DNA of 64,000 nt from an uncultured Gammaproteobacteria bacterium (GTDB taxonomy: Bacteria; Patescibacteriota; Microgenomatia; UBA1406; GWC2-37-13), in the NCBI GenBank assembly GCA_964488545.1, contig CAZAUL010000001.1:54955-118954 (forward strand), given 5' to 3'. Each line of letters begins with the position of its first letter. The stretch's first letter is position 1. Positions 2,095 to 23,948 of this stretch are shown one piece after another. A model generated the notes under the pieces. It was given only the letters and a program-made list of their open reading frames with translations. It was not told the DNA's origin and did no database searches. Position numbers and translations under genes: made by a program.

Positions 2095-2114
2095 AGGTGG
2101 TGTACAATGGTTAT

Positions 2115-2429
2115 ATGAAAACACAAGAGTTTAAGCTATCAGGAAAATATAATCCTGTCACGGTACGTGAAAAACGACTAGTCAAAGCATTTGCACTCCT
2201 TCAAACTGACAAGGACGCTGCATCGCTTATACGAGATATGTTTACTCCTGCAGAGATTGAGGAATTTGCCAATAGACTTGAGGTTGCTGTTCTCCTTAAA
2301 AAGGGCATACCTTATCTTGATATTGCAAAAAAGGTAGGTGTATCAACAACAACCGTTACTCGAGTTGCTCAATGGCTATTCAAAGGCTGTGGAGGGTATA
2401 AAAAAACCCTTGAACAGCTCGGTGAGTAA
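2115..2429 (+). CDS. TrpR-superfamily YerC/YecD-type DNA-binding protein
   Basis: FTPAEIEEFANRLEVAVLLKKGIPYLDIAKKVGVSTTTVTRV resembles B. subtilis YerC (GASTATISRV). ATG at 2115 is preferred over the GTG at 2097 given by the ORF track. Confidence 0.8.
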   Translation: MKTQEFKLSGKYNPVTVREKRLVKAFALLQTDKDAASLIRDMFTPAEIEEFANRLEVAVLLKKGIPYLDIAKKVGVSTTTVTRVAQWLFKGCGGYKKTLEQLGE

Positions 2430-2467: not shown

Positions 2468-4612
2468 ATGGATCCAAACATAACAACACCTCAACCAGAA
2501 CCTCTGCAAACTGCTCAACCAATTGTTGTTAAAAAGCACAGATCTATAGTGCCAGTACTTATTGCCTTTCTCTTTGTTGCGGGAGTTGTTGCCTATATTA
2601 TTAAAAGCCGGGCTCCATCAACAAACAGGTCGTTTCAGGGAAGTGGTAGTGCAGTACCATCGCTGGAACAGTCTTTTTTTGCGACAGATACTTTAGAAAA
2701 AATTAAGTCGGAGTCCGAGCTTATTGACCTATTGCAAAATGCAGATACACAAGGCGGAACGTTTACAAAAGACATAATGATGGAATCGCGTACAAGTGCG
2801 CTTCCAAATGTTGCCGGCAAACCAAGTAACGATACTGCAATGCGGGTTTCATCTACAAATGTTCAAACGTTTGGCGTCGATGAGCCTGATATTCTCAAAA
2901 CAGATGGTGGATCTATTTACTATTCGCGTGAAGGACAGTATCGATGCTTTGACACCCCAGCATCTGATTCTCTCCCTTCGTTTAAAGTTGCACCTGAGCG
3001 GTGTAATTCCACATCAGAAACCCTGGTGGTTGGTGCACTGCCCCCCTCAGAGATGAAGTTGAAAAGTACCATACCCCAAAGTGGTGAAATGCTTATTTCT
3101 GGTAAAAATCTCGTTGTTTTTACACAGAATGCCAAGGGATCATTTACCGTTGTTGGTTACTCCATAGCAAATGCAAGTACGCCAAAGAAACTATGGGAAA
3201 TTCCATTTCATACTCGTGTGCAAAAAGTTGGAGCACGACTATTTAAAGATAAGATATATCTCGTAACCGCGACCACAATTGCTTTACCAAAACCATGTCC
3301 GATACCGTTTACTGAAGGAGATCGGGGTTGGTCAATTGCGTGTTCTGATATTTATGTTCCTTCAAGCAGGCCTTCAAGTAACTCAGTATATTCTTTTGTG
3401 ATGATCAATCCAGAAACCGGCTCAGTTGATAACTCTATTTCAATGACGGGGAATAGTAATGTAAGCACACTCTATATGTCAAGAGAGGCCCTGTATTTGA
3501 GTTATATGGTCGAAGGAGATATTGTCAAAGTTCTGAGTCAGTTTGTTCAAGAAAAAAAAGGAGTATTACCTTCCTATATTGAAGATAAGATACGGACACT
3601 TGATTCGTACGATCTGTCACCACAAACAAAGGAAATGGAATTGCAAAGTGTGTTTTCTCAATATTTTTATTCTCTAGATGAAGATAAACGACTTACAGTT
3701 GAGAACAATCTCCAAAACGCATTTAAGACATTTTTTGCCAAATATAATAGATCATTTGAATATACTGGAATTGCAAAGTTTAGCGCTAACGACCTTTCAT
3801 TTGTCGCATCAGGCAAGGTTCCGGGACGTGCACTTAATCAGTTTTCATTTGATGAGTGGAAAGGGAATCTGCGGATCGCAACCACAATCGGAGATCAGAA
3901 TAGATTTTATTTTTCAGGATTCGGCGATATGCAGTCAGAGAGTGTGAGCGATGTATATGTGCTTGATGGCAAAATGAAAACAATAGGTTCGGTGAAAAAT
4001 CTAGGAAAAACAGAACGTATTTATTCAGTGCGATTTGTTGGTGATCGTGGCTATGTCGTAACATTTCGACAAACCGACCCATTTTATGTACTTGATTTAG
4101 CCAATCCGAATAGTCCACAACTTCGGGGAGAGCTTAAGATACCTGGCTTTTCATCATATCTTCACCCCCTCGATGAGCATCTGATACTTGGTGTTGGGAG
4201 AGAAAATCAAGTTAAACTATCATTATTCGATGTAAAAGATGCAAAAAATCCAAAAGAGATATCCAAGTACGAATTAGCGGGAGAGTATTGGAGTGAGGCC
4301 ATGGATAATCATCATGCATTTCTTCAGGATCAAAAATTCAGTATCTTCTTTTTACCTGGCGGGCGGGGTGGATATGTTTTTTCCTATGACGGAAGGGAAC
4401 TTAGCTTAGTAAAGTCGCTTGAAAGTGCACAGGTAAGACGAGGTATGTACTTGAATGATTATCTTTATATTATTTCAGATTCGGGAATAGCCACATATAG
4501 AGAGGGCACATGGGAAAAGGTGGGCGAGTTTTTCTACTCTGGCAAACCAATTCTGAATATTGCCGAACCGCGCGAAACAATGATTGATGAGCCAATAGAT
4601 GTAATGGAGTAG
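2468..4612 (+). CDS. Membrane-anchored/secreted beta-propeller domain protein (archaeal/CPR 'beta propeller domain' family)
   Basis: 714 aa with an N-terminal TM helix. VQTFGVDEPDILKTDGGSIYY and FRQTDPFYVLDLANPNSPQLRGELKIPGFSSYLHP match the family as I remember it. Confidence 0.6.
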   Translation: MDPNITTPQPEPLQTAQPIVVKKHRSIVPVLIAFLFVAGVVAYIIKSRAPSTNRSFQGSGSAVPSLEQSFFATDTLEKIKSESELIDLLQNADTQGGTFTKDIMMESRTSALPNVAGKPSNDTAMRVSSTNVQTFGVDEPDILKTDGGSIYYSREGQYRCFDTPASDSLPSFKVAPERCNSTSETLVVGALPPSEMKLKSTIPQSGEMLISGKNLVVFTQNAKGSFTVVGYSIANASTPKKLWEIPFHTRVQKVGARLFKDKIYLVTATTIALPKPCPIPFTEGDRGWSIACSDIYVPSSRPSSNSVYSFVMINPETGSVDNSISMTGNSNVSTLYMSREALYLSYMVEGDIVKVLSQFVQEKKGVLPSYIEDKIRTLDSYDLSPQTKEMELQSVFSQYFYSLDEDKRLTVENNLQNAFKTFFAKYNRSFEYTGIAKFSANDLSFVASGKVPGRALNQFSFDEWKGNLRIATTIGDQNRFYFSGFGDMQSESVSDVYVLDGKMKTIGSVKNLGKTERIYSVRFVGDRGYVVTFRQTDPFYVLDLANPNSPQLRGELKIPGFSSYLHPLDEHLILGVGRENQVKLSLFDVKDAKNPKEISKYELAGEYWSEAMDNHHAFLQDQKFSIFFLPGGRGGYVFSYDGRELSLVKSLESAQVRRGMYLNDYLYIISDSGIATYREGTWEKVGEFFYSGKPILNIAEPRETMIDEPIDVME

Positions 4613-4614
4613 TC

Positions 4615-5826
4615 TCACCAATCCTTTTTGTAATAGCGCCGACCTTTCAGGTTATTGGGAAGGTAATCTTGCCGAGGTTTTTTGCCAGTTTCTCGCTCAG
4701 ACATCCACGGATATCTCACGTGGCCTTTACCATAACCAAACTGCCTCATTACCTTATTAGAAGCATTGCGAAGATGGAGAGGTATGGGGTCAAGATTTTT
4801 TTCATCGATATCCGCCATAGCACTTGCAAGACCCTCAGTTGATGCAATTGACTTTTTTGCTGTGGCAAGATATGTAGCTGTTTGGGCCAGAATAAGAGAT
4901 GCTTCGGGCATACCTATCATATGTACCGCCTGCATGCACGAAGTAGCCACAACTAGTGCAGTAGGCTGTGCATTGCCGATATCTTCACTAGCAAAAATTA
5001 ACATACGTCGAGCAATAAAGAGAGGATCTTCACCTGCCTTGATCATGCGGGCAAGATAATGCAATGTGGCGTCAGGTTCTCCTCCTCGCATGCTTTTGAT
5101 AAATGCCGAAATGGTATCATAGTGCCAGTCGCCCTTCTTGTCGTATAGAATTGCTTTTCGCTGTATTGCTTCTTCTGCTATTTGAAGTGTAATTGTTCGT
5201 CCAAGTGATGATGCAAGTTCAACGGCATTAATTGCAGTGCGTGCATCTCCATTACTACTTTTTATTATATGCATCAGTGCATCATTATTCCATGTTCGAC
5301 CTTTAAACTGTGATACGGCAAGCGATACAATTTTCTCCATTTCAGCATCAGTAAGAGGATAAAGTACATAAACCTGAGACCGTGAAATAAGAGGTGCATT
5401 TACTTCAAATCCAGGATTTTCTGTAGTTGCTCCAATAAGAATTATCGATCCATCTTCTACATGAGGGAGAAAGGCATCCTGTTGTCCTTTATTAAATCGG
5501 TGGATTTCGTCCACAAAAAGGACAGTTTGTTTTTTAAATAGATTTTGTTCATTTTTTGCCCTTTTGATGATTTCTCGTATTTCTGCAACTCCACCAGTAA
5601 CTGCAGAAAATGAAACAAACTCTGCATCAACATATTGTGCAATAAGACGTGCAAGTGTAGTTTTACCACAGCCTGGAGGTCCCCATAAAATCATGGATGT
5701 AATCTTTCCACTTTCCAATAACTTTCGCAGAGGTTTTCCTTTACCTACAAGGTGCGTCTGTCCAACAACTTCATTTAGCGACTTAGGGCGTAGCTGTTCG
5801 GCGAGCGGTATATAATCCATTTCCAT
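4615..5826 (-). CDS. rarA: Replication-associated recombination protein A (AAA+ ATPase RarA/MgsA)
   Basis: Walker A GPPGCGKTTLARLIA, Walker B LFVDEIHRFNK, and a MgsA C-terminal domain. ATG at 5826 (the track start at 5829 is TTG). Confidence 0.9.
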   Translation of the reverse strand: MEMDYIPLAEQLRPKSLNEVVGQTHLVGKGKPLRKLLESGKITSMILWGPPGCGKTTLARLIAQYVDAEFVSFSAVTGGVAEIREIIKRAKNEQNLFKKQTVLFVDEIHRFNKGQQDAFLPHVEDGSIILIGATTENPGFEVNAPLISRSQVYVLYPLTDAEMEKIVSLAVSQFKGRTWNNDALMHIIKSSNGDARTAINAVELASSLGRTITLQIAEEAIQRKAILYDKKGDWHYDTISAFIKSMRGGEPDATLHYLARMIKAGEDPLFIARRMLIFASEDIGNAQPTALVVATSCMQAVHMIGMPEASLILAQTATYLATAKKSIASTEGLASAMADIDEKNLDPIPLHLRNASNKVMRQFGYGKGHVRYPWMSERETGKKPRQDYLPNNLKGRRYYKKDW

Positions 5827-5873
5827 CAATTATAAATAAAAGGAAAGTAAAAGTATACAATCGTTCACCCAGA

Positions 5874-7802
5874 TTATTTCTTTTTGAAAAAGGATATTAC
5901 GATTAATATCGACATGAAGGGAGAAAGAAGGAATACGATTTTCTGTGCTTCGGGATTTGTTAAGACGGACAATAACTTACTCTTCACAAGTCCAAGTAGC
6001 ACTTGTGGATGGGTAATTGTGTGTTTTTTATTAAGTTGATGTACCGATTTAAGAAGAGAACCTTTTGTATGGAGAAGAACACGAGAATGGTGATTAATTA
6101 TATTCATACGCACAACATAAACTTTATTTTTAGACTGTTGGATGGTGGGAAATCCAAATGGAAACGATTCACTTTTCCCGATTTCTGCTGTGTTTGTTAT
6201 TTGAGTTGCGTACCAATCTTTCTCATTTTTTTCTTTAATCATTATTTGAAGCATTTGTTTGTCATGGGGGTTTGGTAGAGTACACACAATAGTACCTGTG
6301 TGCTCTATCTTGAGTGTAATAATGCCTAAATTGTTATCAGGTGAGGTAAATTCAAATTCAACTGGTTCATCAGTTAGCTCTACATAGGGTGAGGACTGAT
6401 TGACATACTTTATTTGTTCGTGTGTATGATTATAGACGCGAGAAAAAAAATTGTATCCCGTCATGTACTTTGTGAAAACAATGCCAATAATTGAAATTGA
6501 AAGAATAATGACAGAAATACGGAAATGTAAATCTGAAACATATCCTTCGTTTGTATGTTTTGGTTTAAACTGAAAATAAAGTTTTTCGACAATGTGATGA
6601 AATAAATGTGAGACAGAGAGGGCTAAAGTGCCAGCTAACCCAATAAAAATAACATTGGAAATACTGTTTATCGGTTTCAGATGAAGGTGCAGTCCATCAA
6701 TAATTGCAGTATGGATGATGTAGAGTGGATAACTAACACTACCCAAATAGAGTAGAATTTTTTTATTAAAATTATCATGAAGTACTGGTGTGCGGATAGT
6801 CAGGTATACAATTGCTCCAAACGGAAAAGCCAATAATAAACTAATAAAAACATTTAAAGTTGCTTTTGAGGCAAACAACAGTTCGTGTCCTATAAATACA
6901 GTTAATGCAGCACAAACTGGCAGTAGTATGGAGATGATCTTTGGTAGTTGAAGTGGCTTATGAATGCTTGGAGAGTATGCAATAACAATACCGATACAGA
7001 AATAAAAAAAATAACCTATATATAGCATTGAAAGTCCACGGAAACCTACAAAAAGTAAGTGAAGTCCCCAAAAGAAGGGGATTAAAAACAGAATTAAAAC
7101 CTGGCGATAAACACTATGGAAACGTTCCATCGCTCGTGCTGTTGGAGCGATAAGATAAGGGTACAAAATATAAAATAGCACTTCACCATTGAGGCTCCAA
7201 TATACACCATCTAGAAGGGGAATATAATCGCCAGCAGGAAGTGTGAGCGTCATGTTCACAAGCGCAATGCTCATTTCCCTTATCCATTGAGGCATCGCCG
7301 CAAACCAAATGGGGGGGTGACGCATGATAATAAATCCATACCAAACCAGCACTAGAGTTTGCAGAAACATGAATGCAGTAATCAGCTTCGGTCCTATTTT
7401 ATACTTTTCTACAATTTGCATCCATAAAAAGCGCATGAGACCAGCCAATGCCAATATCACGACAATGCGTGCAATAAGCGGAGTGTCAGGATAAAGACGA
7501 AAAAATGTCATACTAATCGCCATAACAATAAAGGGTGGGAAAATACGCGCATACCTTTTTTGTATAAAGTCATGAGGTTGAGGATTTTTGTACAGATACG
7601 CCATCAAAAAACCCGAAAGAATATAGAAAAAGGTGACAGCAATTGTACCGCTAGAAAAAAGAAAAGCGATAAATGGGCGAAGTAGTATGGGAAATGCATT
7701 TATAATGTATCCAGAGTCCATGTGGTTTAAAACCACAAAAACTATTGCGAGACCACGTAAACCATCAAGCGCAGTAAGACGCAACTTCGTAAGACCACTC
7801 AT
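5874..7802 (-). CDS. Acyltransferase-3 (OafA/YrhL-like) integral membrane protein with an extra C-terminal domain
   Basis: LDGLRGLAIVFVVLNH start motif and about 10 TM helices, followed by a ~200-aa non-SGNH domain and a terminal TM helix. The start overlaps the trpS stop by 4 nt. Confidence 0.8.
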   Translation of the reverse strand: MSGLTKLRLTALDGLRGLAIVFVVLNHMDSGYIINAFPILLRPFIAFLFSSGTIAVTFFYILSGFLMAYLYKNPQPHDFIQKRYARIFPPFIVMAISMTFFRLYPDTPLIARIVVILALAGLMRFLWMQIVEKYKIGPKLITAFMFLQTLVLVWYGFIIMRHPPIWFAAMPQWIREMSIALVNMTLTLPAGDYIPLLDGVYWSLNGEVLFYILYPYLIAPTARAMERFHSVYRQVLILFLIPFFWGLHLLFVGFRGLSMLYIGYFFYFCIGIVIAYSPSIHKPLQLPKIISILLPVCAALTVFIGHELLFASKATLNVFISLLLAFPFGAIVYLTIRTPVLHDNFNKKILLYLGSVSYPLYIIHTAIIDGLHLHLKPINSISNVIFIGLAGTLALSVSHLFHHIVEKLYFQFKPKHTNEGYVSDLHFRISVIILSISIIGIVFTKYMTGYNFFSRVYNHTHEQIKYVNQSSPYVELTDEPVEFEFTSPDNNLGIITLKIEHTGTIVCTLPNPHDKQMLQIMIKEKNEKDWYATQITNTAEIGKSESFPFGFPTIQQSKNKVYVVRMNIINHHSRVLLHTKGSLLKSVHQLNKKHTITHPQVLLGLVKSKLLSVLTNPEAQKIVFLLSPFMSILIVISFFKKK

Positions 7803-9271
7803 CCCAATCCCAATTTTGTTTTAACTTCATACAACGTTTTTTGGGCGATGGATTTTGCTTTTTTTGCACCTTCCTGAATAACTGTGTCAACATATTTATT
7901 GTCTTTTTCTAAGACTGCTCTTTTATCCTGAAGAGGCTTTAGTTCGTTTGATATTGCATTTGCAACGGCATCTTTAATCTCAACAAATTTCAAAGTTCCA
8001 CTGGTAAACTGGTTTTCAAATTGCTCAATGGTATCTGGTATAAAAAGCCGAGCAAGTGTAAATAATGCCTTTACTCCCTCGTTCATTTCTCCCCCAGCAG
8101 AAGTTGCAGTTGGAATGGACCTAATCTTTTTCTTCACTTCGTCAGTGGAGTCAGTAAGATTTATATAACTTCCTTCAACTGATTTACTCATTTTTCCTTC
8201 TCCTTTAAGCGAAGGAATATACTCTCCTTTGGTTGCAAACCGAGTGGGCTCGGGGAAATCTAAACCGTATTGTTCATTCATTTTTCGAGCAATTTCACGC
8301 GTTACTTCAAGGTGAGGTTCTTGATCTATGCCGACCGGCACAAGTCCTGCCTTGTACACTAAAATATCTGCTGCCATCAATACTGGATAGTTCAATAGAG
8401 CCATGGTGCTGTGCTGAGGATACTGCTTTACTTTATCTTTAAAAGTTGGGAGGTGTTGCATACGGGCAATCGACATGACAGAAGAAAAATAAAACGCAAG
8501 CTCAAAGTGTTCGTTTACCTCAGCCTGTTGAAAGATAATGCTTTTATTCGGATCAAGTCCAGCGGCAAGGTAATCGATAATTACTTCACGTCTATTTTTC
8601 CGAAGTTCATTAATTGAGTAGGGAGTGGTAACGGTATGAGAGTCAGCCACCATAAATAAAGTTTCATATTCTTGGCTATTTTGAAGTTCCAACATACCTT
8701 TAACCGCTCCAAGATAGTTCCCCAAATGGAGACGTCCCGTTGCGCGAATTCCAGACAATACCCGTTTTGGACCTTTATATTTTGACTCAATAACAGATAG
8801 AGTAGAAATATCAGCCACCATAGAGTTGGGGAGTTTAGTTAAATCTTTTGTCTGATATTGAATACTACTTTCAAAACTCCCAGAACCAGCTTGTACAAAA
8901 GTCCTCTCCATCACTTTTTTATCAATAAACGTTCGCATTACTTCAGGAATAAATACTCGAGCGGCTCCGGGAGGTAATCCGGTAAGACTGCTAAATTCTT
9001 CATTCGTTGCCATTCTGAGAAGCTTCGTCTTTAGAATGTTTTGTAATTTTTTCAAATCAACTTTACAATCATCTCTTCGTATAACTGAGATATATCCATC
9101 ATCAACCTTAAAGATAAGTGTCGACGCACCATCTGCGAAAGTAAGTTTACAATACTTCAAAACGTCCTCAACGGTCACCAAATGAGGATGCTCCACTATT
9201 GAGTGGTTGAGACCCAATTCCTTGAGTTGATTTGAGTAGTTTTGTACAAGTGGTTCGATCATAGGTTTCAT
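7799..9271 (-). CDS. trpS: Tryptophan--tRNA ligase with an N-terminal ~165-aa YbaK/ProX-like domain
   Basis: The C-terminal ~325 aa carry GRLHLGNYLGAV (TrpRS HIGH-equivalent) and KMSKS. The N-terminus has a YbaK-like pattern (TLIFKVDDGYISVIRRDDCKVDLKKLQNIL...LRMATNEEFSSLTG). Confidence 0.9.
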   Translation of the reverse strand: MKPMIEPLVQNYSNQLKELGLNHSIVEHPHLVTVEDVLKYCKLTFADGASTLIFKVDDGYISVIRRDDCKVDLKKLQNILKTKLLRMATNEEFSSLTGLPPGAARVFIPEVMRTFIDKKVMERTFVQAGSGSFESSIQYQTKDLTKLPNSMVADISTLSVIESKYKGPKRVLSGIRATGRLHLGNYLGAVKGMLELQNSQEYETLFMVADSHTVTTPYSINELRKNRREVIIDYLAAGLDPNKSIIFQQAEVNEHFELAFYFSSVMSIARMQHLPTFKDKVKQYPQHSTMALLNYPVLMAADILVYKAGLVPVGIDQEPHLEVTREIARKMNEQYGLDFPEPTRFATKGEYIPSLKGEGKMSKSVEGSYINLTDSTDEVKKKIRSIPTATSAGGEMNEGVKALFTLARLFIPDTIEQFENQFTSGTLKFVEIKDAVANAISNELKPLQDKRAVLEKDNKYVDTVIQEGAKKAKSIAQKTLYEVKTKLGLG

Positions 9272-9280
9272 TATAGCAAG

Positions 9281-10405
9281 TTATATTATCTGGTCTATCT
9301 TTGCTGTAATTCGTAACGGCTCTTGATCCATAATTATTTCTGCATTTTTTTCATATTCCTGCTTTTGTTGAGGTTGATAATTAAGATTTACTTCTGCAAC
9401 TACAGCTTGATGTGATTGATTTTTCTGGAGATTAAGGGCGGCTAGCATAAGTGCGGGACATGTTCCTCCAAGACGGGCTGTAATATCCGTGATACCTTCA
9501 AGAGGATTTCCATTTTGATCTACGCCAATAAGCATATCATAGCTTAAACGGGATGCTAGTATTGGAGTTGTGGATCTATAGAGTAAATCAAAGGCTGCAG
9601 TTTTTTCGACTGTAGTAGCGTGGAGACCAACAGGCGAAAATTGGCGTGATACAATATCATGCAATTCATCAAAACCACCACGTACCACATGTACATTTTG
9701 AGCACCTAAATAGATATCTCGCCCATCTGGACCTCTTCCGTTTTTTTGGTCAGCAACGAAACTATACTTGTCTCTCCCGAGAAAAAATGTACCAACAGAA
9801 ATAGTTTTCTTTGGACCAGTAACATTCTGCTCAATCACAAGTCCATCTTTACTGATAGAACTCTCGCTATGGTGTGTTAACAAATATGCCAAATGTTCTT
9901 TGTTTTCAAGAGCCGCCTGACCCTCACCGTCAGAATCGTTCGTTGTTTTAAGTCGATAAGAAAAAGGCTTATGATGACGCAGATTATCGTCATAATAGTT
10001 AATGGCATCCTTCGCACTAAAAATCGTGACGCCCGGTAATACTAATCCTATTTCTTGCGCTTTTAATGCCATCAGATATATTTGTTCATCATAAAAACTT
10101 GGATATATATCTCCAATCGCGGGATGAAGCACAGCTTTACCTACATATGACATCTCTGGCGTCATACCACCATAAAAATCTTCAACTGTTGTGATTAAAA
10201 ATTTTCCACGGTCATGTCCACTTAAAGTTATGCCTGGAACTATGTAGGTTTTATTATGAGGGAATTTCATGAGCGGTTCAGGGTTGTAAGAAAATCCTTG
10301 ATAACGAGCAATCTTTTCCGCAATTGTTCCATTTCTTTCTTTTACGAAGGTAAATCTGGTTGAAAGTGGATCCATGTTTCCAAGATACGTGCGCACTTCT
10401 GTCAT
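9281..10405 (-). CDS. Conserved hypothetical protein, possible ATP-grasp fold
   Basis: 374 aa, tightly packed between trpB and trpS. RLKTTNDSDGEGQ, LVIEQNV and ITDITARLGG loosely resemble ATP-grasp P-loop, hinge and Mg-site motifs. The functional call is weak. Confidence 0.5.
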   Translation of the reverse strand: MTEVRTYLGNMDPLSTRFTFVKERNGTIAEKIARYQGFSYNPEPLMKFPHNKTYIVPGITLSGHDRGKFLITTVEDFYGGMTPEMSYVGKAVLHPAIGDIYPSFYDEQIYLMALKAQEIGLVLPGVTIFSAKDAINYYDDNLRHHKPFSYRLKTTNDSDGEGQAALENKEHLAYLLTHHSESSISKDGLVIEQNVTGPKKTISVGTFFLGRDKYSFVADQKNGRGPDGRDIYLGAQNVHVVRGGFDELHDIVSRQFSPVGLHATTVEKTAAFDLLYRSTTPILASRLSYDMLIGVDQNGNPLEGITDITARLGGTCPALMLAALNLQKNQSHQAVVAEVNLNYQPQQKQEYEKNAEIIMDQEPLRITAKIDQII

Positions 10406-10406
10406 A

Positions 10407-11597
10407 TTATTTCTTTTCTAAAAATGTTTTATATACATACTCTACGTCTTTATCTCCTCGGCCGGAGAGATTAACTACAACCACTTCGTTTTTATGTAGT
10501 TGTTTTGCAAGTTTTATTCCATGTGCAACAGCGTGTGCTGATTCAAGAGCGGGGATTATCCCTTCAGTACGGGACAAAAGAGAAAACGCATCAACTGCCT
10601 CTGCATCTGATGCTGTTGCGAGAAACACTCTCCCTGTTTCAGCAAGATACGCAATTTCAGGTCCAACTCCCGGGTAATCGAGCCCCGATGCAGCGCTATA
10701 TGATGTTGCTATTGATCCATCTGGATGTACTAAGACGCGCGTTTTATAACCATGAATTGTTGATGGTTTACCTTTGCCTAGAGCCAAACCATGCATATCC
10801 GTGTCTATCCCTTTCCCTGCAGGTTCGACTGCAACAAGATGTACATTCGGATCATCAATAAACGAGTAAAACGCGCCAAGTGCATTACTTCCGCCTCCAA
10901 CGCAAGCTACTATGGAATGGGGGAGTTGACCTTCTACAAGCATTATTTGAGATTTGATTTCTTCACCGATTATTTTTTGGAAATCACGAACCATTGTTGG
11001 ATACGGATGTGGTCCTACAGTAGAACCCAAAAGATAAAAAGATTCAGGCTCTTTAATATACGCGCTTAATGCCATATCCACTGCATCTTTGAGTGTCTTT
11101 TGACCTGTGGTGACTGGGATAACACGTGCACCTAATATTTTCATACGGAACACATTTGGCCTTTCATTTTTTATGTCACGTTCACCCATGTATATGTCAC
11201 AACCCATTCCAAAATAAGCGGCTACTGTTGCTGTTGCAACTCCATGTTGGCCGGCTCCCGTTTCGGCAATAAGTTTTTTCTTACCCATACGCATTGCAAT
11301 AAGTGCTTGACCTAATGCATTGTTTATTTTGTGAGCGCCAGTATGATTGAGATCTTCACGCTTGAGATACATCTTTGCTCCCTGTGCGTAGCGAGTGAGG
11401 TTTTTTGCAAAAAATAGGCGACTAGGTCTTCCTGCAAAGTCTCTATACAACCTTTTTAAATCGTTTTGAAACGATATGTCTTTGATTGCATCGTAATAAG
11501 CAATTGTTAGTTTGTGAAGGGACTTTTCAAGTTGGGGCGGAACATAAGAACCACCAAAAGGACCAAAAAATCCGTTTTTATCTGGCTGTTTATACAT
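10407..11597 (-). CDS. trpB: Tryptophan synthase beta chain (TrpB1-type); no trpA adjacent
   Basis: FGPFGGSYVPPQL, LKREDLNHTGAHKINN (PLP lysine), GAGQHGVATA and GGGSNALG. Confidence 0.95.
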   Translation of the reverse strand: MYKQPDKNGFFGPFGGSYVPPQLEKSLHKLTIAYYDAIKDISFQNDLKRLYRDFAGRPSRLFFAKNLTRYAQGAKMYLKREDLNHTGAHKINNALGQALIAMRMGKKKLIAETGAGQHGVATATVAAYFGMGCDIYMGERDIKNERPNVFRMKILGARVIPVTTGQKTLKDAVDMALSAYIKEPESFYLLGSTVGPHPYPTMVRDFQKIIGEEIKSQIMLVEGQLPHSIVACVGGGSNALGAFYSFIDDPNVHLVAVEPAGKGIDTDMHGLALGKGKPSTIHGYKTRVLVHPDGSIATSYSAASGLDYPGVGPEIAYLAETGRVFLATASDAEAVDAFSLLSRTEGIIPALESAHAVAHGIKLAKQLHKNEVVVVNLSGRGDKDVEYVYKTFLEKK

Positions 11598-11655
11598 ATA
11601 AAAAAGTTAAAAAATAATAAATGAAAATTGGTTATATGAAGAAATTAAAGTAGGC

Positions 11656-11928
11656 TTATCGCCACGAAGAAGATGGGGTTACCGATTTAAATCGGCCTTG
11701 TGCAATTTCCTTTGAACCGCGAGTTACTGTTGCTATACCCACACCAAGTTTTTCAGCGATGGAGTGTTGAGGAATACCTTTTTTAAGCATTTTTACGATT
11801 TGAAGGCGGATTGGTATCTCATCGAGTTCCTTCGGTGTAAGTATGCCCTTTAGAAATTCCTCTATCTCTGTATGTGTTTTGCACAATGAAAGTTCAGCAA
11901 CGAACTCACCAATAAATTTCCTATTCAT
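11656..11928 (-). CDS. trpR: Trp repressor (TrpR) homologue
   Basis: LTPKELDEIPIRLQIVKMLKKGIPQHSIAEKLGVGIATVTRGSKE aligns with E. coli TrpR [46 protein letters not shown]. Confidence 0.85.
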   Translation of the reverse strand: MNRKFIGEFVAELSLCKTHTEIEEFLKGILTPKELDEIPIRLQIVKMLKKGIPQHSIAEKLGVGIATVTRGSKEIAQGRFKSVTPSSSWR

Positions 11929-11930
11929 GC

Positions 11931-11964
11931 GTACTAGTATACTAGTACACTATTATTTTGTCAA
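11931..11964 (-). promoter_or_regulatory. Sigma70-type promoter (TTGACA-17-TATACT) with an embedded 18-bp trp-operator-like palindrome GTACTAGTATACTAGTAC
   Basis: The minus strand reads TTGACA AAATAATAGTGTACTAG TATACT AGTACGC ATG. The palindrome at 11931..11948 is perfect and matches the idealised E. coli trp operator at 16 of 18 positions. Confidence 0.7.
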
Positions 11965-12565
11965 CAAGATTTTGCTTGTAAGAAATACACTTAAATGCGT
12001 ATTTGTTTTCGATAGTTTCACATGGTTGACCTTGTATCATATTGGATGGGGCATCGTTCTTAATATAGTATAAAAGAAATGAGACGGGATATTTGTTCAT
12101 GAGTGTTTTTAAATTCGGATTATCTTTAAGGTTTCCAAGTTCATATTTAAAATTATCCATTTTTTTGATTTCATTACCTGTTAATGATCCGACAACTATA
12201 TTTCTTTGTATCAAATCCGGAGTTTGGTAATAGGTTGCAATCCCGATTTTTGAATCATCTTTTGCCAAGTCTTTTACTGTTTCAAAAAGTGTCGCATCAT
12301 TTCCACGCATCTCAAAAGTTAGCTTATTATCTAATTGCACTGGATAGAGACACATCGAATGTACTTCCGCATAGCACATAGGAGATCGAAGATTTATTTT
12401 ATTTGCTGGTAAACCAGCGGGTTCGGCCGCTTTGCTGTTTGTCGCTTGATTGCTTTGTAGTGTCCAGAAATTAAATAGCAACATACCGGCAATTAGGATA
12501 ATCCCCAATCCTATATATGTGGTTTTTTTTGAAATACAAACTCTTGATTGTTCCATAAAATCCAT
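11942..12565 (-). CDS. Hypothetical membrane-anchored/secreted protein
   Basis: 207 aa with an N-terminal hydrophobic helix (TYIGLGIILIAGMLLFNFW). No recognisable domain. Its stop codon lies inside the trp operator. Confidence 0.55.
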   Translation of the reverse strand: MDFMEQSRVCISKKTTYIGLGIILIAGMLLFNFWTLQSNQATNSKAAEPAGLPANKINLRSPMCYAEVHSMCLYPVQLDNKLTFEMRGNDATLFETVKDLAKDDSKIGIATYYQTPDLIQRNIVVGSLTGNEIKKMDNFKYELGNLKDNPNLKTLMNKYPVSFLLYYIKNDAPSNMIQGQPCETIENKYAFKCISYKQNLVDKIIVY

Positions 12566-13365: not shown

Positions 13366-15571
13366 CAATAGTATACGGATCCTTGTCGTGATTACAGTCT
13401 ACACAGTAAATTGAAAACATATCTTTGATTATTGTTTTTTCCCTGTGTTCAACATTGGTGTCAGTTGGACTGGCAAGTTTATCCGTATCTTTATTGATAG
13501 GTACCGACTGGCGTACTGACCCGCCACCTTGAGGCTCGGTACCCTTGATGAAAAATTCATAACGAGCAGGGCAACTCTCAGCACCTCCATCATCTTTTGT
13601 CATTGCGGTACCGCTGTCATTGCAAATTTGTTTTCCAATCACTGTATCAGGTTTTACCGGCCACACATCGGGCTGTTCGGCGAGAACGTATCGCATTATC
13701 TTATTCCATATTGGTGCTGCGCCGGTAACCCCTGAGGCAAGCGCAGGGTTCATGGGTGAGTTGTCATTATTTCCAACCCATACAGCGGTGAGAAAGTTTG
13801 GCGTGTAGCCAATGGTCCAGTTGTCTTTTTTATCATCAGTTGTTCCTGTTTTGACTGACACAGTCTTGCGAGGGACGATAAGGAATGAGCTGTCACCGAA
13901 TGCTGAAACTCGTGCGTTGTTGTCGAGCAAAATATGCGAAATAATGTATGATGCTTCACGAGACAGTACACGTTTACCAGGGATTGCAAGTGCTGACGGT
14001 GCAGAAATGGGCTTAGCAATATCCTTAACGAGATTGGCATCTTGAAATTCGTAAAGAACTTTGCCCGTTCTGTCCTCGATTTTCAAAATAGAGTTGAGTT
14101 TTCGTGGAATACCCTGGTTGGCGAGTGCCGAAAAGGCCTGTGCCATCTCGGTCATTCGAACTTCACCACCGCCAAGAGTCAGTGACAAGCCGTATCGTTT
14201 TGGATCGTCAAATGATGTAATCGTTAATGCAGATGCAGATGCAATAAATTCTTTTACACCGTTTACTGCAAGCATTTTTACTGCGGGAATGTTATACGAA
14301 TTTCCCAGAGCGAACCGAAGTTGCGTTGGTCCATGAAACTGACCATCATAGTTAACTGGACAGTATGATCCTGGCTGGCCTTCTGCTGTAAAACAGGTTG
14401 GAATATCTAAAAAAACAGTGCCAGCAGTAACTTTTTTTAAATCTATACCGACGGCAAAGTTAAGTGGTTTAATTGAACTTCCGGGCTGTCGGAGAGCGGT
14501 GGTAACATTAAACGCGCCTGAGCCAGTAGCAAAGTAGTCGACTGACCCAACCATTGCAATCACCTCTCCTGTGGGTGGTCTCGTAACAAGTGCCGCACCG
14601 TTGTTTACATTGAGGTACTCTATATCCTCAAGCTCCTCGCGGACAATTTTTTCCGCCTCTTCTTGCACTGTGAGATCAAGCGTGGTGGTAACTTTCAAAC
14701 CACCTTGTTCAACCAGGTCTGCCCCAAATTGCTTTTCTAAAAGTTGCTTTACATAAAATACAAAATGCGGCGCTTTTACTATCGTTCGGAGTGGAATAAC
14801 AGCGATGGGTTTTTTAAGAAGTTCATCCTTTTGTTTTGAAGAGATATATGACTGCTCAGCCATTGCTTTCAGTACCTCATTGCGGCGCTTTACAGCAAGA
14901 TCAGGATTGATATATGGCGAATAGAGTGATGGTGCCTGGGGTAGTCCTGCTAAAAATGCGGCTTCATCTATAGTTAACTCTTTTGCATGTTTTCCAAAGA
15001 ACGTTTTTGATGCTTCCTCAATACCATATGCTGAGCCACCGTATGGCACTTGATTGAGATACATTTCAAGGATTTCTTCTTTTGTAAACTGCTGTTCCAC
15101 TTGAACTGCCAATATGATTTCACGTACTTTTCTCCGAATTGTTCGTTCAGGACTCAATAGTGCGTTTTTAACAAGTTGCTGAGTAAGGGTTGATCCTCCT
15201 TGTAAATTTTGGCGGAGTAGTGTGTCCTTCATTGCTCGCAGAATGCCCGATACTAATGAAACACCTTTATGTTTGTAAAAATCTTTGTCTTCAATTGCTA
15301 TTACTGCCTGATATACGTGCGGTTTTAAATCTTTAAGGTATATTTGAGTTCTGTTTTGATCACGGTATATCTCATAGAGCAGCTTGCCGTTTCGATCATA
15401 CATGTGTGTTGAAAGCGGGACTGTTTTATTATCACGTAGGGAAGATGCGGCTGGCAGGTCTTTAAAAATAAAAAAGTAAATGACAGCAGAAATGAGAACT
15501 ACTGATAAAATTAAACCTCCAATGCTTAATGCCAACAGGTGATCTTTGATAAAGGCAACTACTTTATTCAT
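13355..15571 (-). CDS. Class A penicillin-binding protein (transglycosylase/transpeptidase, PBP1A)
   Basis: GT51 motifs AIEDKDFYKHKGV and GGSTLTQQL, and the transpeptidase motif SSIKP. Confidence 0.9.
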   Translation of the reverse strand: MNKVVAFIKDHLLALSIGGLILSVVLISAVIYFFIFKDLPAASSLRDNKTVPLSTHMYDRNGKLLYEIYRDQNRTQIYLKDLKPHVYQAVIAIEDKDFYKHKGVSLVSGILRAMKDTLLRQNLQGGSTLTQQLVKNALLSPERTIRRKVREIILAVQVEQQFTKEEILEMYLNQVPYGGSAYGIEEASKTFFGKHAKELTIDEAAFLAGLPQAPSLYSPYINPDLAVKRRNEVLKAMAEQSYISSKQKDELLKKPIAVIPLRTIVKAPHFVFYVKQLLEKQFGADLVEQGGLKVTTTLDLTVQEEAEKIVREELEDIEYLNVNNGAALVTRPPTGEVIAMVGSVDYFATGSGAFNVTTALRQPGSSIKPLNFAVGIDLKKVTAGTVFLDIPTCFTAEGQPGSYCPVNYDGQFHGPTQLRFALGNSYNIPAVKMLAVNGVKEFIASASALTITSFDDPKRYGLSLTLGGGEVRMTEMAQAFSALANQGIPRKLNSILKIEDRTGKVLYEFQDANLVKDIAKPISAPSALAIPGKRVLSREASYIISHILLDNNARVSAFGDSSFLIVPRKTVSVKTGTTDDKKDNWTIGYTPNFLTAVWVGNNDNSPMNPALASGVTGAAPIWNKIMRYVLAEQPDVWPVKPDTVIGKQICNDSGTAMTKDDGGAESCPARYEFFIKGTEPQGGGSVRQSVPINKDTDKLASPTDTNVEHREKTIIKDMFSIYCVDCNHDKDPYTIVRL

Positions 15572-16986
15572 ATACTAATTCGTGGAAATAGCGGTGGAAT
15601 TTTCTGAATGGTGCCCGAGGTATACTGCATGATCTTTTCGCTAATGGTTGGCATAAACGGCGAAAGACGAATGCCAACTGCATGTAGTATATGTATTGCA
15701 TTTGTGAGAAATGTATGGCGTTCTTCAGGAGTTTTGCTCCATGGTTCGAATGTATTAATTTCCTTATTAAGATCTTTAATTGTGCTCCAGATAGAGCCTA
15801 ATACTTGACCAAAGGCAAACGATTCTATTTGTCGAAGATCTTCTATGGGTGATTGCGATGTAGTTTGTGTAACTGAAATTCCATCTTTAGCGGCAAGGGT
15901 AGTAATACGAGACACACAGTTCCCCAGTTCATTTGCGAGGTCTGCATTGTACACCTCTTTCATACGGGACTCAGAATAGTCGCCATCATCAAGACTCGGG
16001 ATTTCACGAAGCAAATAGTAGCGTACTGCATCTGTGCCATATGTATTTACAATCATATAAGGATTTACCACATTACCAAGGCTTTTACTCATTTTTTGAC
16101 CATTTGAGGTAATGAATCCGTGTATGATGATTTGATCGGAAAGGGGTAGTTTTGCCGACATGAGCATTGCTTGCCACATTGCCGACTGCTGTCTGAGGTT
16201 GTCTTTACCGGCCACCTGTTTTCCGGGCCAATAGGCGGCAAACTGTTCACTCTGTGTTGGCCAGCCCAAGGTTGAGATATAGTTTATAAGCGCATCAAAC
16301 CACACATACATTACGTGGTCTGAGTCTTCTGGGACAGGTATTCCCCAGGGCATCTTCTTTTTCAACCGAGATACACTAAAGTCCTGAAGCCCCCCCTCAA
16401 CAAAGTGAATAATTTCCCGCATTTTTTCGGTCGGGACTACAAAATGAGGGTTTTTCCTGTATAGTTCAAGAAGTGGCTTTTGATACTTTGAGAATTTAAA
16501 AAAGTAGTTTTCTTCGTTGCGAAGTTCAATAGCAGTTTTAGGATGGATGGGGCACTTGTCATCCTCAAGTTCGGAGTCTGTTTTTTCTAGTTCACACCCA
16601 ACACAATATTTTGTTTGATAGTTTTTTTTGTATATGTCGTCGTTGTTTTTGCACCGAGTCCAAAACTCTTGTGCGGCACTTATGTGTGCCTTGTCAGTTG
16701 TGCGGATAAAGTGCGTATAGCTTAGATTGAGCGCATCGCGTAGTTTGCTGAACTTTTCTGCATACTCATCACAGTAAGCTTTTGGATCTTTATTTTGTTC
16801 AACTGCTTTTTCATAAATTTTTTGTCCATGTTCATCAGTTCCCGTATTAAATACTACGGTTGCTCCGTGCATGCGCCAAGCGCGTGCAAGGACATCCGCT
16901 TGGACTATTTCAAGGGCAAATCCAATATGCGGTTCCGCATTCACATAAGGGAGAGTGGTGGTGATATATTTTTTGGTTTGAGACAT
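15568..16986 (-). CDS. metG: Methionine--tRNA ligase (short form, no C-terminal tRNA-binding domain)
   Basis: PYVNAEPHIGFALE (HIGH-like), a CVGCE...CPIHP zinc knuckle, and KMSKSLGN. Confidence 0.95.
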   Translation of the reverse strand: MSQTKKYITTTLPYVNAEPHIGFALEIVQADVLARAWRMHGATVVFNTGTDEHGQKIYEKAVEQNKDPKAYCDEYAEKFSKLRDALNLSYTHFIRTTDKAHISAAQEFWTRCKNNDDIYKKNYQTKYCVGCELEKTDSELEDDKCPIHPKTAIELRNEENYFFKFSKYQKPLLELYRKNPHFVVPTEKMREIIHFVEGGLQDFSVSRLKKKMPWGIPVPEDSDHVMYVWFDALINYISTLGWPTQSEQFAAYWPGKQVAGKDNLRQQSAMWQAMLMSAKLPLSDQIIIHGFITSNGQKMSKSLGNVVNPYMIVNTYGTDAVRYYLLREIPSLDDGDYSESRMKEVYNADLANELGNCVSRITTLAAKDGISVTQTTSQSPIEDLRQIESFAFGQVLGSIWSTIKDLNKEINTFEPWSKTPEERHTFLTNAIHILHAVGIRLSPFMPTISEKIMQYTSGTIQKIPPLFPRISI

Positions 16987-22250: not shown

Positions 22251-22964
22251 ATGCAAGACAGCACCACGCTCATTATCGTTGGTGGTTCAGGCGATGACGA
22301 GCATTCATTTGATCCATTAAAAAGAATTATGGGCAAGTGTATGCCCAAACTTAAAGTAGTTACTTTTTCATTTACTAGCACAAAAAGTCACAGCGATCTT
22401 CCACTTCATACACAAGTTAACGATTTGAATGCTATTCTGGATCACGAAAATGCTGCATCACACAAAAGCTGTGTGCTTATGGCAACAAGCCAGGGTGCAT
22501 ACAGTGCCACGCATGTATTAGTAAACTCTTACTATGGGCAGTTGATTAAGCAATGTATATTAGTTGATCCAGCAGATTATTATAGTGATACAAAAATCTT
22601 ACTATCCCAAGCGCATTCATGGTCAGGATTTGAAGCATATGAGCCTGAAAAGAAAACAATCTCTATGCTTATGAACGATATAAAAAGTGATGTAGTTGTG
22701 GACGTAATCCATTTTGCGCTTCGAAACTACGATAAAAATGGATATGGAGCACCATCAGAAAGAAGGGTGGACAATCCGCATAAGTTCCCTCGATTAAATA
22801 GCAATATGGTAGAGTCATTTTTTAGAAATACTCCCCAAAAAAATAAAGGGCACTACGTCGTAGAAAAAACCCTACCTCATGCATTTATGAGAGATGGGAA
22901 TATAGATCAAAACTGTGAAACTCTTTCGAGAATCATTTACAATCTTCTCACTAACAGAATGTAA
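22251..22964 (+). CDS. Hypothetical protein, possible alpha/beta-hydrolase fold
   Basis: 237 aa. VLMATSQGAY resembles a nucleophile elbow. The call is weak. Confidence 0.35.
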   Translation: MQDSTTLIIVGGSGDDEHSFDPLKRIMGKCMPKLKVVTFSFTSTKSHSDLPLHTQVNDLNAILDHENAASHKSCVLMATSQGAYSATHVLVNSYYGQLIKQCILVDPADYYSDTKILLSQAHSWSGFEAYEPEKKTISMLMNDIKSDVVVDVIHFALRNYDKNGYGAPSERRVDNPHKFPRLNSNMVESFFRNTPQKNKGHYVVEKTLPHAFMRDGNIDQNCETLSRIIYNLLTNRM

Positions 22965-22979
22965 CGGTACTTTTCTGAG

Positions 22980-23948
22980 TTATAAATCTTGTTGAATATA
23001 TTTGCGAATGTTTTCGTTATGTTCTTCTAATGTTTTTGCAGGTCGTATACGCCCTTTTGAGTCGTTGACATAATACCAGTAAGGAGTATTTGGATCTGCA
23101 CCCAGTGCCGCCTTAATTGAAGCCAGTCCTGGATTACATATAGGAGCAGGAGGATAACCCGTTTTTTGATACGTATTATATGAAGAATCTGCCTTTATAT
23201 CTTCAAGGGTAAGATGACGCTTCCACCATGTTTTTTCCTGCCGCTGATATCCAAGTGCATACTGTATAGTTGCGTCAATTTGAAGTGGCCAATCATTTGC
23301 AGCGCGTTTAGCTATTATGCTTGCTACTAATAGGCGGTCTTCGGGAAATTTAGCTTCCCGTTCGACAAGCGAAGCTAAGATAAGAGCCTCACGATCTGAA
23401 CGCTTTTCAAAAGGATACTGCTTGCGCGCTTCAGCAATTTTTGCTTTAAAATTATTTTGCATAATTTCTATAATCTGTTCTTCAGTTGCCTGTTTGGGTA
23501 TAAGATATGTGTCCGGAAACAGTTCACCCTCCCGTGCATTCTCGATAAATGTAATCTCAGATATAGAAAATTGATCCTTTAACTTCATTGCAATTTCTTC
23601 TTTGCGCATGCCTTCAATTATGGTGATCCACTCGTCTTCGGTTCCATGAGTAAGTTGTTCGGCTATTTGCTGAGCTGTAAGTCTTTTTGAAAGCTTAAAG
23701 TCACCTGCCTGTATGTTTTTTTCAATACCCATTTGCTTTGCTATTGCAAGAAATACGAGACGGTTTCGTATCAACCCCTCAGTTGAGAGTCGCTTTGTAA
23801 TTGAATAGAGTCCCTCTCCCTTTTGTACAGTAAAAATCTGTGCACCTGTGTTAGTTTTATCAACGGGAAGGCCACCTTCAACGTATACAAAATATCCGAA
23901 TATAAGTACCAATATAGTCAAAATGAGGGTGATACGTAATCTTTTCAT
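22980..23948 (-). CDS. mltG: Endolytic murein transglycosylase MltG (YceG family)
   Basis: N-terminal TM helix, ILASLVEREAKF, and the YNTYQKTGYPPAPICNPG motif. Confidence 0.9.
   Translation of the reverse strand: MKRLRITLILTILVLIFGYFVYVEGGLPVDKTNTGAQIFTVQKGEGLYSITKRLSTEGLIRNRLVFLAIAKQMGIEKNIQAGDFKLSKRLTAQQIAEQLTHGTEDEWITIIEGMRKEEIAMKLKDQFSISEITFIENAREGELFPDTYLIPKQATEEQIIEIMQNNFKAKIAEARKQYPFEKRSDREALILASLVEREAKFPEDRLLVASIIAKRAANDWPLQIDATIQYALGYQRQEKTWWKRHLTLEDIKADSSYNTYQKTGYPPAPICNPGLASIKAALGADPNTPYWYYVNDSKGRIRPAKTLEEHNENIRKYIQQDL

Follow-up and report, generated by a model that had tools for sequence, protein, structure and literature searches.

A TrpR-headed gene cluster and its operator

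The 64-kb stretch of DNA analysed here (the window) carries on its minus strand a compact gene cluster in which a member of the DUF3182 family lies among genes for tryptophan (Trp) regulation, synthesis, and tRNA charging. The cluster begins with trpR, which encodes a tryptophan repressor of 90 aa (11656-11928, PF01371). It continues with trpB (10407-11597, 396 aa, TIGR00263), the DUF3182 gene (9281-10405, 374 aa, PF11379), and a gene in which a YbaK-like domain is fused to tryptophanyl-tRNA synthetase (TrpRS; YbaK-like::trpS, 7799-9271, 490 aa, PF04073 and TIGR00233). The last gene encodes an acyltransferase-3 membrane protein (AT3, 5874-7802, 642 aa, PF01757). The gaps between consecutive genes, from trpR to AT3, are 58, 1, 9, and −4 nt. 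These coordinates and gaps, first given by an earlier reading made from the DNA letters without database searches (hereafter the sequence-only reading), were all confirmed. A scan of the region found no minus-strand terminator-like sites between the five genes. The gaps of at most 58 nt and the kept gene order suggest that trpR through trpS form a single operon, and AT3 is probably co-transcribed with them in the window. The relatives of the locus come from metagenome-assembled genomes of the Microgenomates group, Roizmanbacteria, and other Patescibacteria, and the source organism is a Microgenomates/Roizmanbacteria-like bacterium of the Candidate Phyla Radiation (CPR).

The sequence-only reading had placed a single consensus promoter carrying a trp operator in front of the cluster, and this held up. 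The predicted promoter is of the sigma-70 type (11936..11964, minus strand, TTGACA-17-TATACT), with the −35 element TTGACA at 11964-11959, a 17-nt spacer, and the −10 element TATACT at 11941-11936. It matches the consensus at 11 of 12 positions, ranks first among 20 promoter-like sites in the region, and has its −10 element inside a perfect palindrome. The ATG of trpR (11928) lies 7 nt past the −10 element, and because this spacing is short, the trpR mRNA is probably leaderless or almost so. The promoter sits within the final codons of a co-directional upstream gene (11942-12565), and at the other end 44 nt separate AT3 from the next same-strand gene, rarA (4615-5829), so the sequence alone does not fix the limits of the transcription unit.

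TrpR matches its Pfam family (PF01371) with 67.1 bits at a cut-off of 27. In the BLASTP alignment with the E. coli protein, its recognition helix, GIATVTRGSK, is nearly identical to the E. coli counterpart, and residues T31, R41, I65-A66-T67, and T69-R70-G71-S72 equal T44, R54, I79-A80-T81, and T83-R84-G85-S86 of E. coli TrpR. We take T31, R41, T67, and R70 to have the roles that T44, R54, T81, and R84 play in the E. coli TrpR structures. The putative trp operator (11931..11956) consists of a palindrome and a third half-site. The perfect 18-nt palindrome, GTACTAGTATACTAGTAC, occupies 11931-11948 and spans the −10 element, and the third, ACTAGT-like half-site is placed at an 8-bp offset (11939-11956). 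The predicted operator overlaps both the −10 element and the likely transcription start. When up to 3 mismatches were allowed, GTACTAGTNNACTAGTAC was matched 3 times in the window, compared with 0.11 matches expected from shuffles. The same tandem sites immediately precede trpR in 13 other loci (L002, L003, L006, L007, L010, L011, L014, L015, L033, L034, L035, L045, and L047). Each adjacent trpR on the same strand has them directly in front of it, and the roughly 450 kb of loci contain none elsewhere. The only other operator-like site in the window (22515-22532, GTATTAGTAAACTCTTAC) has 3 mismatches, lies inside an open reading frame (ORF; 22251-22964), and was judged to be probably due to chance. 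A T-box was found neither in the window nor in the loci, and the window has no other Rfam element. A second TrpR-family gene (2097-2429, plus strand, 110 aa, PF01371 at 1.6e-17) is located just upstream of a beta-propeller gene (2468-4612), and no ACTAGT-type operator was found beside it. Loci L015, L034, L045, and L046 likewise carry a second TrpR-like gene close to the operon.

TrpB scores 557 bits with TIGR00263 (cut-off 392). It is of the canonical TrpB1 type, carries the HTGAHK motif with the pyridoxal-phosphate lysine, and is 51% identical to E. coli TrpB. The sequence-only reading had noted no other trp gene in the window, and in agreement with this, tblastn queries with E. coli TrpA, TrpC, TrpD, and TrpE gave no match in the 64 kb (TrpA best E 0.055). 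No trpA was found in the flanks of L002, L003, and L014, and none is shown by L045 and L047. The one Glycos_transf_3 protein (23945-25207, minus strand) was considered as TrpD and rejected, as it carries PYNP_C and is a nucleoside phosphorylase.

The catalytic core of TrpRS (residues 166-490 of the fusion, 7799-8776, minus strand) scores 282 bits with TIGR00233 (cut-off 176.75) and contains RLHLGNYLG, a HIGH-type motif, and KMSKS. The N-terminal YbaK/INS-like domain (residues 1-165, 8777-9271, minus strand) matches PF04073 (tRNA_edit) with 61.7 bits (9e-17, cut-off 25.5), and its nearest solved relatives are the INS domain of ProRS (1e-6) and APE2540 (2e-5). In this superfamily, a nearly universal lysine (K45 in ProXp-ala, K279 in ProRS) positions A76 and the aminoacyl group (PMC10164551). 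The lysine aligns to Ser50 of the fusion (KTMI/KTLI versus STLI), and each of the 14 TrpRS-fused homologues has Ser, Ala, or Val there. With this near-universal lysine replaced, an editing role cannot be taken for granted for the YbaK-like domain. Fusions of this kind are infrequent and restricted to Roizmanbacteria-like genomes, and their two parts differ in how they relate to the window. Relative to the window, the N-domain and the TrpRS core are 62% and 33% identical in L045, 65% and 32% in L014, and 46% and 73% in L047, and both TrpRS core types score as bacterial trpS. These mismatches point to domain-level mosaicism and to selection to keep the domain on TrpRS. Neither the window nor the loci yielded a tRNA-Trp gene.

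AT3 matches Acyl_transf_3 (PF01757) with 81.3 bits (cut-off 31), and in the window its start and the trpS stop share 4 nt. The gap between AT3 and trpS is 25-100 nt in L002, L003, and L014, and in L007 an AT3 gene stands beside TrpR-DUF3182-AstE on the opposite strand. The closest relative, L034, whose DUF3182 is 91% identical, has no AT3, and in L047 AT3 occurs without DUF3182. AT3 has a normal tryptophan content (7 residues, 1.1%, in the window; 6-12 per AT3 protein across the loci). On these three grounds we place AT3 outside the Trp module; it is a passenger and not a conserved member, and its earlier casting as a functional partner is not supported. Downstream of trpS in L034, rarA is split into three ORFs (8652-9678), either as a pseudogene or through an assembly error.

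DUF3182: fold, neighbours, and tryptophan content

The 374-aa protein encoded between trpB and trpS matches DUF3182 (PF11379) over residues 26-358 with 145.6 bits (2e-42, cut-off 26). The AlphaFold2 model, built from a 29-sequence alignment, has a predicted local distance difference test score (pLDDT) of 94.8 and a predicted template-modelling score (pTM) of 0.92, and the protein is confidently modelled as a three-domain ATP-grasp fold. A Foldseek search of the PDB with the model returned 277 matches with E ≤ 0.001. The top ones are all ATP-grasp proteins at a probability of 1.00 and include PurD, Ddl, D-Ala:D-lactate ligase, PurK, carbamoyl-phosphate synthetase (CPS), and a Streptomyces peptide ligase, with E values of about 1e-9 and template-modelling (TM) scores of 0.4-0.55. 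Burroughs et al. 2015 (PMC4431377) had already counted the family among unrecognised ATP-grasp proteins and placed it close to the CPS/BtrJ clade. Its invariant residues include K90, H94, R151, K153, G160, Q163, E192, R286, D290, R311, G313, and G314, together with an SDGxGQ loop and D307-x-T309-x-R311-x-GG. Presumably K153, SDGxGQ, E192, D290, and D307-x-T-x-R311-x-GG correspond to the nucleotide and Mg motifs of PurK, PurT, and PurD, which they resemble. In hhalign, K153 and the SDGxGQ loop were aligned to the K..GGYDGRGQ loop of PurK in a short and weak local match (probability 1%). The alignment of the family with E. coli DdlB was not significant, and the DUF3182 profile gave no meaningful match to PDB sequences (best E 0.25). 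DUF3182 is a small family of 935 clusters at 50% identity, and no function was found in the literature mentioning it. Its long members P0290, P0245, P0277, and P0048 were inspected as Rosetta-stone fusions and discarded, as they carry no second Pfam domain.

The sequence-only reading had tied this protein to a Trp theme and proposed a search of gene neighbourhoods, and that check came out positive. We collected 42 loci, which were collapsed at 95% identity to 28 non-redundant loci (24 CPR-type and 4 proteobacterial). Among the non-redundant CPR loci, DUF3182 adjoins TrpRS in 14 of 24, TrpR in 12 of 24, and either or both in 18 of 24. The pairing occurs in at least 4 unrelated flanking contexts, at DUF3182 identities of 32-55%. 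The order TrpR-TrpB-DUF3182-TrpRS is found in the window, L034, L014, L002, and L003, whereas L033 has TrpR-DUF3182-TrpRS and L015 and L035 have TrpR-DUF3182 only. In 11 loci, DUF3182 is followed by a Zn deacylase of the AstE/AspA type (about 245 aa), and then usually by TrpRS. This partner deacylase of the relatives keeps the aspartoacylase HxxE...NR...H motifs for Zn and carboxylate. We found no paper that pairs an ATP-grasp enzyme with AstE. A weak tblastn match to an AstE-like gene in the window (32526-32735) was dismissed, as it lies in a large ORF read as a Mur ligase fusion. In the AstE-type loci L004, L008, L009, L010, L032, L037, and L038, DUF3182 is preceded, at a distance of 250-1200 nt, by a tRNA-Met(CAT) gene.

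Other members of the family have different neighbours. In 4 CPR loci, DUF3182 adjoins M20 peptidases or GCS2 ligases and no Trp gene, and in all 4 proteobacterial loci it is paired with an overlapping alpha/beta hydrolase. The latter loci (L013, L018, L019, and L020, from Ralstonia, Microvirga, Sphingobium, and Burkholderia) carry a hydrolase of about 260 aa (S9/S33-like) whose start overlaps the DUF3182 stop. The two-gene cassette is located on megaplasmids or secondary replicons and has no tryptophan context. These contexts were set aside as a functional clue, since they hold a conserved overlapping hydrolase and no informative pathway.

The make-up of the module also varies among relatives. 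In Roizmanbacteria RIFOXYB2_FULL_38_10 (L045, L046), TrpR is followed by a 221-aa protein without tryptophan, the YbaK::TrpRS fusion, and then TrpB. The 221-aa protein of L045 (3656-4321) has no Pfam or PDB sequence match and is a candidate for a further enzyme of the starvation module. The arrangements of L034, L047, and L045/L046 imply that DUF3182 and AT3 vary independently. The constant core is trpR with its operator plus trpS, to which trpB is added in the clade of the window.

The tryptophan content of the encoded proteins sets the core apart from its surroundings. Tryptophan (W) accounts on average for 0.94% of residues in the window (55 ORFs). The three consecutive proteins TrpRS, DUF3182, and TrpB, for which the sequence-only reading had proposed a common Trp theme, are all W-free: they have 0 W in 1260 residues, compared with about 12 expected (binomial P about 7e-6 under a simple model). 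Across the loci, there is no W in 1593 residues of TrpB and none in 3687 of TrpRS, and a single one in 1879 residues of the AstE-like proteins. CPR-type DUF3182 contains 0.08% W, with 59 of 76 proteins W-free, whereas the proteobacterial type contains 0.92%, with 8 of 99 W-free. This contrast within one family, CPR versus proteobacterial, is the most telling. Neighbouring genes across the loci are not W-poor (AT3 1.17%, RarA 1.39%), and M20, GCS2, and alpha/beta hydrolase proteins have normal contents. Other synthetases of the window are not W-poor: IleRS (50556-53495) has 30 W (3.1%), the top count in the window, and a CysRS-like protein (15568-16986) has 9.

The remaining genes of the window are of housekeeping, cell-wall, or division type. 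A cell-wall and division cluster at 26-50 kb encodes MurJ, a PBP2-type transpeptidase, Mur ligases, a MurA-like and a MraY-like protein, FtsW, MurG, FtsA, and FtsZ. A 772-aa ORF within it (32214-34532) looks, from its translation, like a MurC-MurB fusion.

A proposed tryptophan-starvation operon and competing explanations

We read the locus, with a probability of roughly 0.7, as a TrpR-autoregulated Trp-starvation operon in which indole salvage and increased TrpRS would be joined by an ATP-dependent ligase linked to Trp. Repression by TrpR is deduced from a recognition helix and an operator that match the E. coli type. When Trp is plentiful, Trp-bound TrpR would sit on the tandem operator over the −10 element and the start, and limit the operon to low basal expression; a fall in Trp would set off its transcription. 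TrpB would then make Trp from scavenged indole and serine, a salvage role suggested by a canonical TrpB1 enzyme with no upstream pathway nearby. More TrpRS would allow tRNA-Trp to be charged still at low Trp, and DUF3182 would carry out an ATP-dependent ligation tied to Trp supply. Proteins needed when an amino acid runs out are known to avoid that amino acid, and on this principle the W-free proteins are read as a set expressed in starvation: three enzymes built without tryptophan could still be synthesised during Trp shortage. AT3 and rarA are neighbours outside the module, and the YbaK-like domain is a diverged, lysine-less member of its superfamily that may serve tRNA handling or another hydrolysis. 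The proposal of the sequence-only reading that a TrpR-controlled unit couples an orphan TrpB, salvaging indole and serine, to TrpRS is supported.

Several observations weigh against this reading. TrpR falls under the cut-off of the NCBIfam equivalog model TIGR01321 (49.4 versus 67.25 bits); the YerC/YecD model scores it lower still (29.6 bits). TrpB1 enzymes are usually poorly active without TrpA. The TrpB and TrpRS families are W-poor in general, so W-freeness counts for less in them than in DUF3182. Roughly half of the AstE-type loci have neither trpR nor an operator, and these loci share an extended synteny (integrase-like, DivIC-like, tRNA-Met, DUF3182, AstE, TrpRS, tRNA_bind, FtsH), so part of the linkage there may be inherited gene order. 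The deacylase gene is absent from the window's own clade. DUF3182 is dispensable, as the 1.14-Mb contig of L047 encodes TrpR-TrpB-YbaK::TrpRS-AT3-RarA without it, and in L045 the W-free 221-aa protein fills its slot. Finally, a ligase and a deacylase that act on one bond type would undo each other, and such a cycle looks futile.

What DUF3182 would ligate can be proposed only tentatively. It is possible, if doubtful, that the enzyme ligates free Trp, or else an acid or amine derived from indole or Trp, to give a charged amide (an N-acyl-Trp or a Trp dipeptide). The amide would trap or process scarce Trp, and in most relatives the adjacent Zn deacylase would release Trp from it for TrpRS. An equally speculative extension holds that CPR-type DUF3182 is a Trp-specific ATP-grasp ligase which, with interchangeable hydrolases, would drive the capture or processing of scarce Trp at the expense of ATP and hand it to TrpRS. 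The hydrolase might be the AstE-like deacylase or possibly the lysine-less YbaK-like domain. In the extreme version, DUF3182 would work via tryptophanyl-phosphate, and tRNA-Trp or a carrier would bear the resulting ester or amide.

Competing explanations differ from the starvation operon in what they make of DUF3182. Its presence could reflect gene order only: trpS would be a housekeeping gene, trpR would regulate itself with or without trpB, and DUF3182 would be an unrelated neighbour kept by synteny in one CPR lineage. The long syntenic block of the AstE-type loci, half of them without trpR and operator, speaks for this, as do the otherwise identical operon of L047, the 4 CPR loci with M20 peptidases or GCS2 ligases, and the proteobacterial members outside any Trp context. 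We nevertheless regard it as unlikely. The pairing with TrpR or TrpRS recurs in unrelated flanks at DUF3182 identities of 32-55%, the sole partner in L015, L016, and L035 is a TrpR with its operator, and the gene is separated from trpB and trpS by only 1 and 9 nt. The near absence of tryptophan from CPR-type DUF3182, shared neither by its proteobacterial homologues nor by neighbouring genes, argues in the same direction. W-free composition under TrpR control would also fit if DUF3182, with the AstE-like protein in relatives, were a Trp-sparing stand-in for W-containing housekeeping enzymes (for example a Ddl-like ligase or a carboxypeptidase), induced in starvation and with no direct action on Trp. 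The Foldseek matches to D-Ala-D-Ala ligases are in line with such isoenzymes, and tblastn detected no Ddl homologue in the window despite its large cell-wall cluster. However, the likeness to Ddl is at the level of fold only (TM 0.4-0.55, 12-15% identity) and found no significant counterpart in hhalign with DdlB, and DUF3182 forms a separate family that has conserved motifs of its own and is repeatedly paired with a hydrolase, in Proteobacteria too, where DUF3182 is not W-free. This explanation is quite improbable.

The sequence-only reading had suggested, as pure inference, a side pathway that consumes Trp or Trp-tRNA for envelope modification or a peptide product, an idea that the evidence turns against, since shut-off by TrpR when Trp is plentiful and proteins that avoid Trp point to a starvation response. 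In its fuller form, the locus would be a specialised pathway with its own TrpRS, in which DUF3182, with or without AT3, uses Trp or Trp-tRNA outside translation. Peptide and ester bonds are common products of ATP-grasp enzymes, the Foldseek matches include Ddl, D-Ala:D-lactate ligase, and the Streptomyces peptide ligase, and the weight that GECCO gave to PF11379 links the family to biosynthetic gene clusters. The 4-nt overlap of AT3 and trpS in the window and the AT3 gene beside TrpR-DUF3182-AstE in L007 could also be counted in its favour. Yet a canonical TrpR that represses at abundant Trp is the wrong logic for a Trp sink, and AT3, missing from L034 and separate from DUF3182 in L047, has a normal W content whereas the other enzymes have none. 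The TrpRS is moreover of the ordinary bacterial type and the sole one in the window, and no precursor peptide or carrier gene is evident; we consider the pathway improbable. Very unlikely is a pathway for a non-canonical amino acid resembling pylTSBCD, in which TrpB would join a substituted indole to serine, DUF3182 would modify or ligate the product, and YbaK-like::TrpRS would charge or proof-read it. The ATP-grasp ligase PylC is encoded with the dedicated PylS, TrpB enzymes accept many indole analogues, and the unusual N-domain is kept on two TrpRS core lineages. Against these parallels, no dedicated tRNA gene lies nearby, TrpRS scores as an ordinary trpS equivalog, the Trp-contacting residues of TrpR are conserved, and the W-free composition fits a scarcity of ordinary Trp.

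CPR bacteria, or Patescibacteria, account for much of bacterial diversity and are unable to synthesise most amino acids; we found no paper on trpB in this group. A Trp-starvation operon would represent a compact regulatory answer to shortage of Trp, the rarest amino acid, conserved in several arrangements, in which TrpR and its operator drive indole salvage and TrpRS through enzymes that are free of Trp. TrpR control, linkage to TrpRS and the deacylase, and lineage-specific tryptophan avoidance give DUF3182 its first testable functional context. The lysine-less YbaK-like domain on two TrpRS lineages hints at an accessory function in tRNA-Trp charging. If true, a Trp-specific DUF3182 ligase would be a new step in the translation of minimal-genome symbionts under Trp limitation.

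Comparison with known systems

DUF3182 resembles the ATP-grasp carboxylate-amine ligases (PurD, PurK, PurT, Ddl, carbamoyl-phosphate synthetase, BtrJ, and the L-amino-acid ligases) in its predicted three-domain fold and presumably in a Lys, a Gly-rich loop, and a D/E-x-S/T-x-R-x-G-G motif at the expected places. It differs from them in its low identity (8-15%), with no significant sequence match to solved structures, and in its recurring non-homologous hydrolase partner, which may be of the AstE/AspA type, an alpha/beta hydrolase, or M20. The partner deacylase of the relatives belongs with the aspartoacylase, aminoacylase-3, and succinylglutamate desuccinylase family. Its Zn-binding HxxE...H motif and its D-x-N-R-x-F motif line up with human and rat aspartoacylase (E 1e-6) and with aminoacylase-3 (3.5e-4). 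Aminoacylase-3 deacetylates N-acetyl aromatic amino acids. Unlike aspartoacylases, the partner has only about 240-250 aa, corresponding to the catalytic domain alone, is W-free, and is encoded between DUF3182 and trpS.

On the regulatory side, the locus shares with the E. coli TrpR regulon (trpEDCBA, aroH, trpR, mtr, and aroL) a nearly identical recognition helix, a palindromic operator of the form GTACTAGT-NN-ACTAGTAC with repeats at an 8-bp offset over the −10 element, and probably autoregulation of trpR. The targets differ, being trpS, an orphan trpB, and DUF3182 here, and the regulated operon starts with trpR. The repressor itself is shorter than the E. coli protein (90 aa) and lies below the NCBIfam equivalog cut-off. 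The trpRBA operon of Chlamydia trachomatis likewise places trpR and trpB in one TrpR-repressed unit and belongs to a host-dependent bacterium that lacks the upstream Trp pathway and can turn scavenged indole into Trp when Trp is scarce. In contrast to trpRBA, the present unit has no trpA in the window and includes trpS and DUF3182, its organism belongs to the CPR, and its operator is tandem and E. coli-like.

The view that no described system puts trpB, trpS, and two uncharacterised genes under TrpR, expressed in the sequence-only reading, is only partly true, given the chlamydial operon and TrpR-headed TrpRS operons reported in Microgenomates. The locus was partly anticipated for this group by Mukai et al. 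2017 (PMC5370408), who described TrpR-headed operons with TrpRS, TrpRS fused to small proteins, and W-free TrpRS. Their tRNA-Trp(A73)-ORF1-TrpRS-A operons come from the same phylum-level group, are headed by a trp repressor, and encode a TrpRS without tryptophan, with fusions to small proteins noted (PMC5370408). The operon of the window differs in that TrpRS is of the bacterial type, no tRNA gene is part of the unit, trpB is included, and the accompanying protein is DUF3182, an ATP-grasp protein, and not the class-I-like ORF1. A loose precedent for the fusion is the Plasmodium falciparum TrpRS with an AlaX-like domain (PMC3240968), in which an editing-type fold also stands at the N-terminus of TrpRS, an enzyme without a known need for editing; here the domain is YbaK/INS and not AlaX, the protein is bacterial, and the canonical lysine is lost. 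Relative to these systems, the new elements are the recurrent linkage of DUF3182 to TrpR and TrpRS, the W-free make-up that DUF3182 and the partner deacylase show in this lineage, a YbaK-like domain without the lysine that is common to two TrpRS lineages, and the evidence for the acyltransferase as a passenger.

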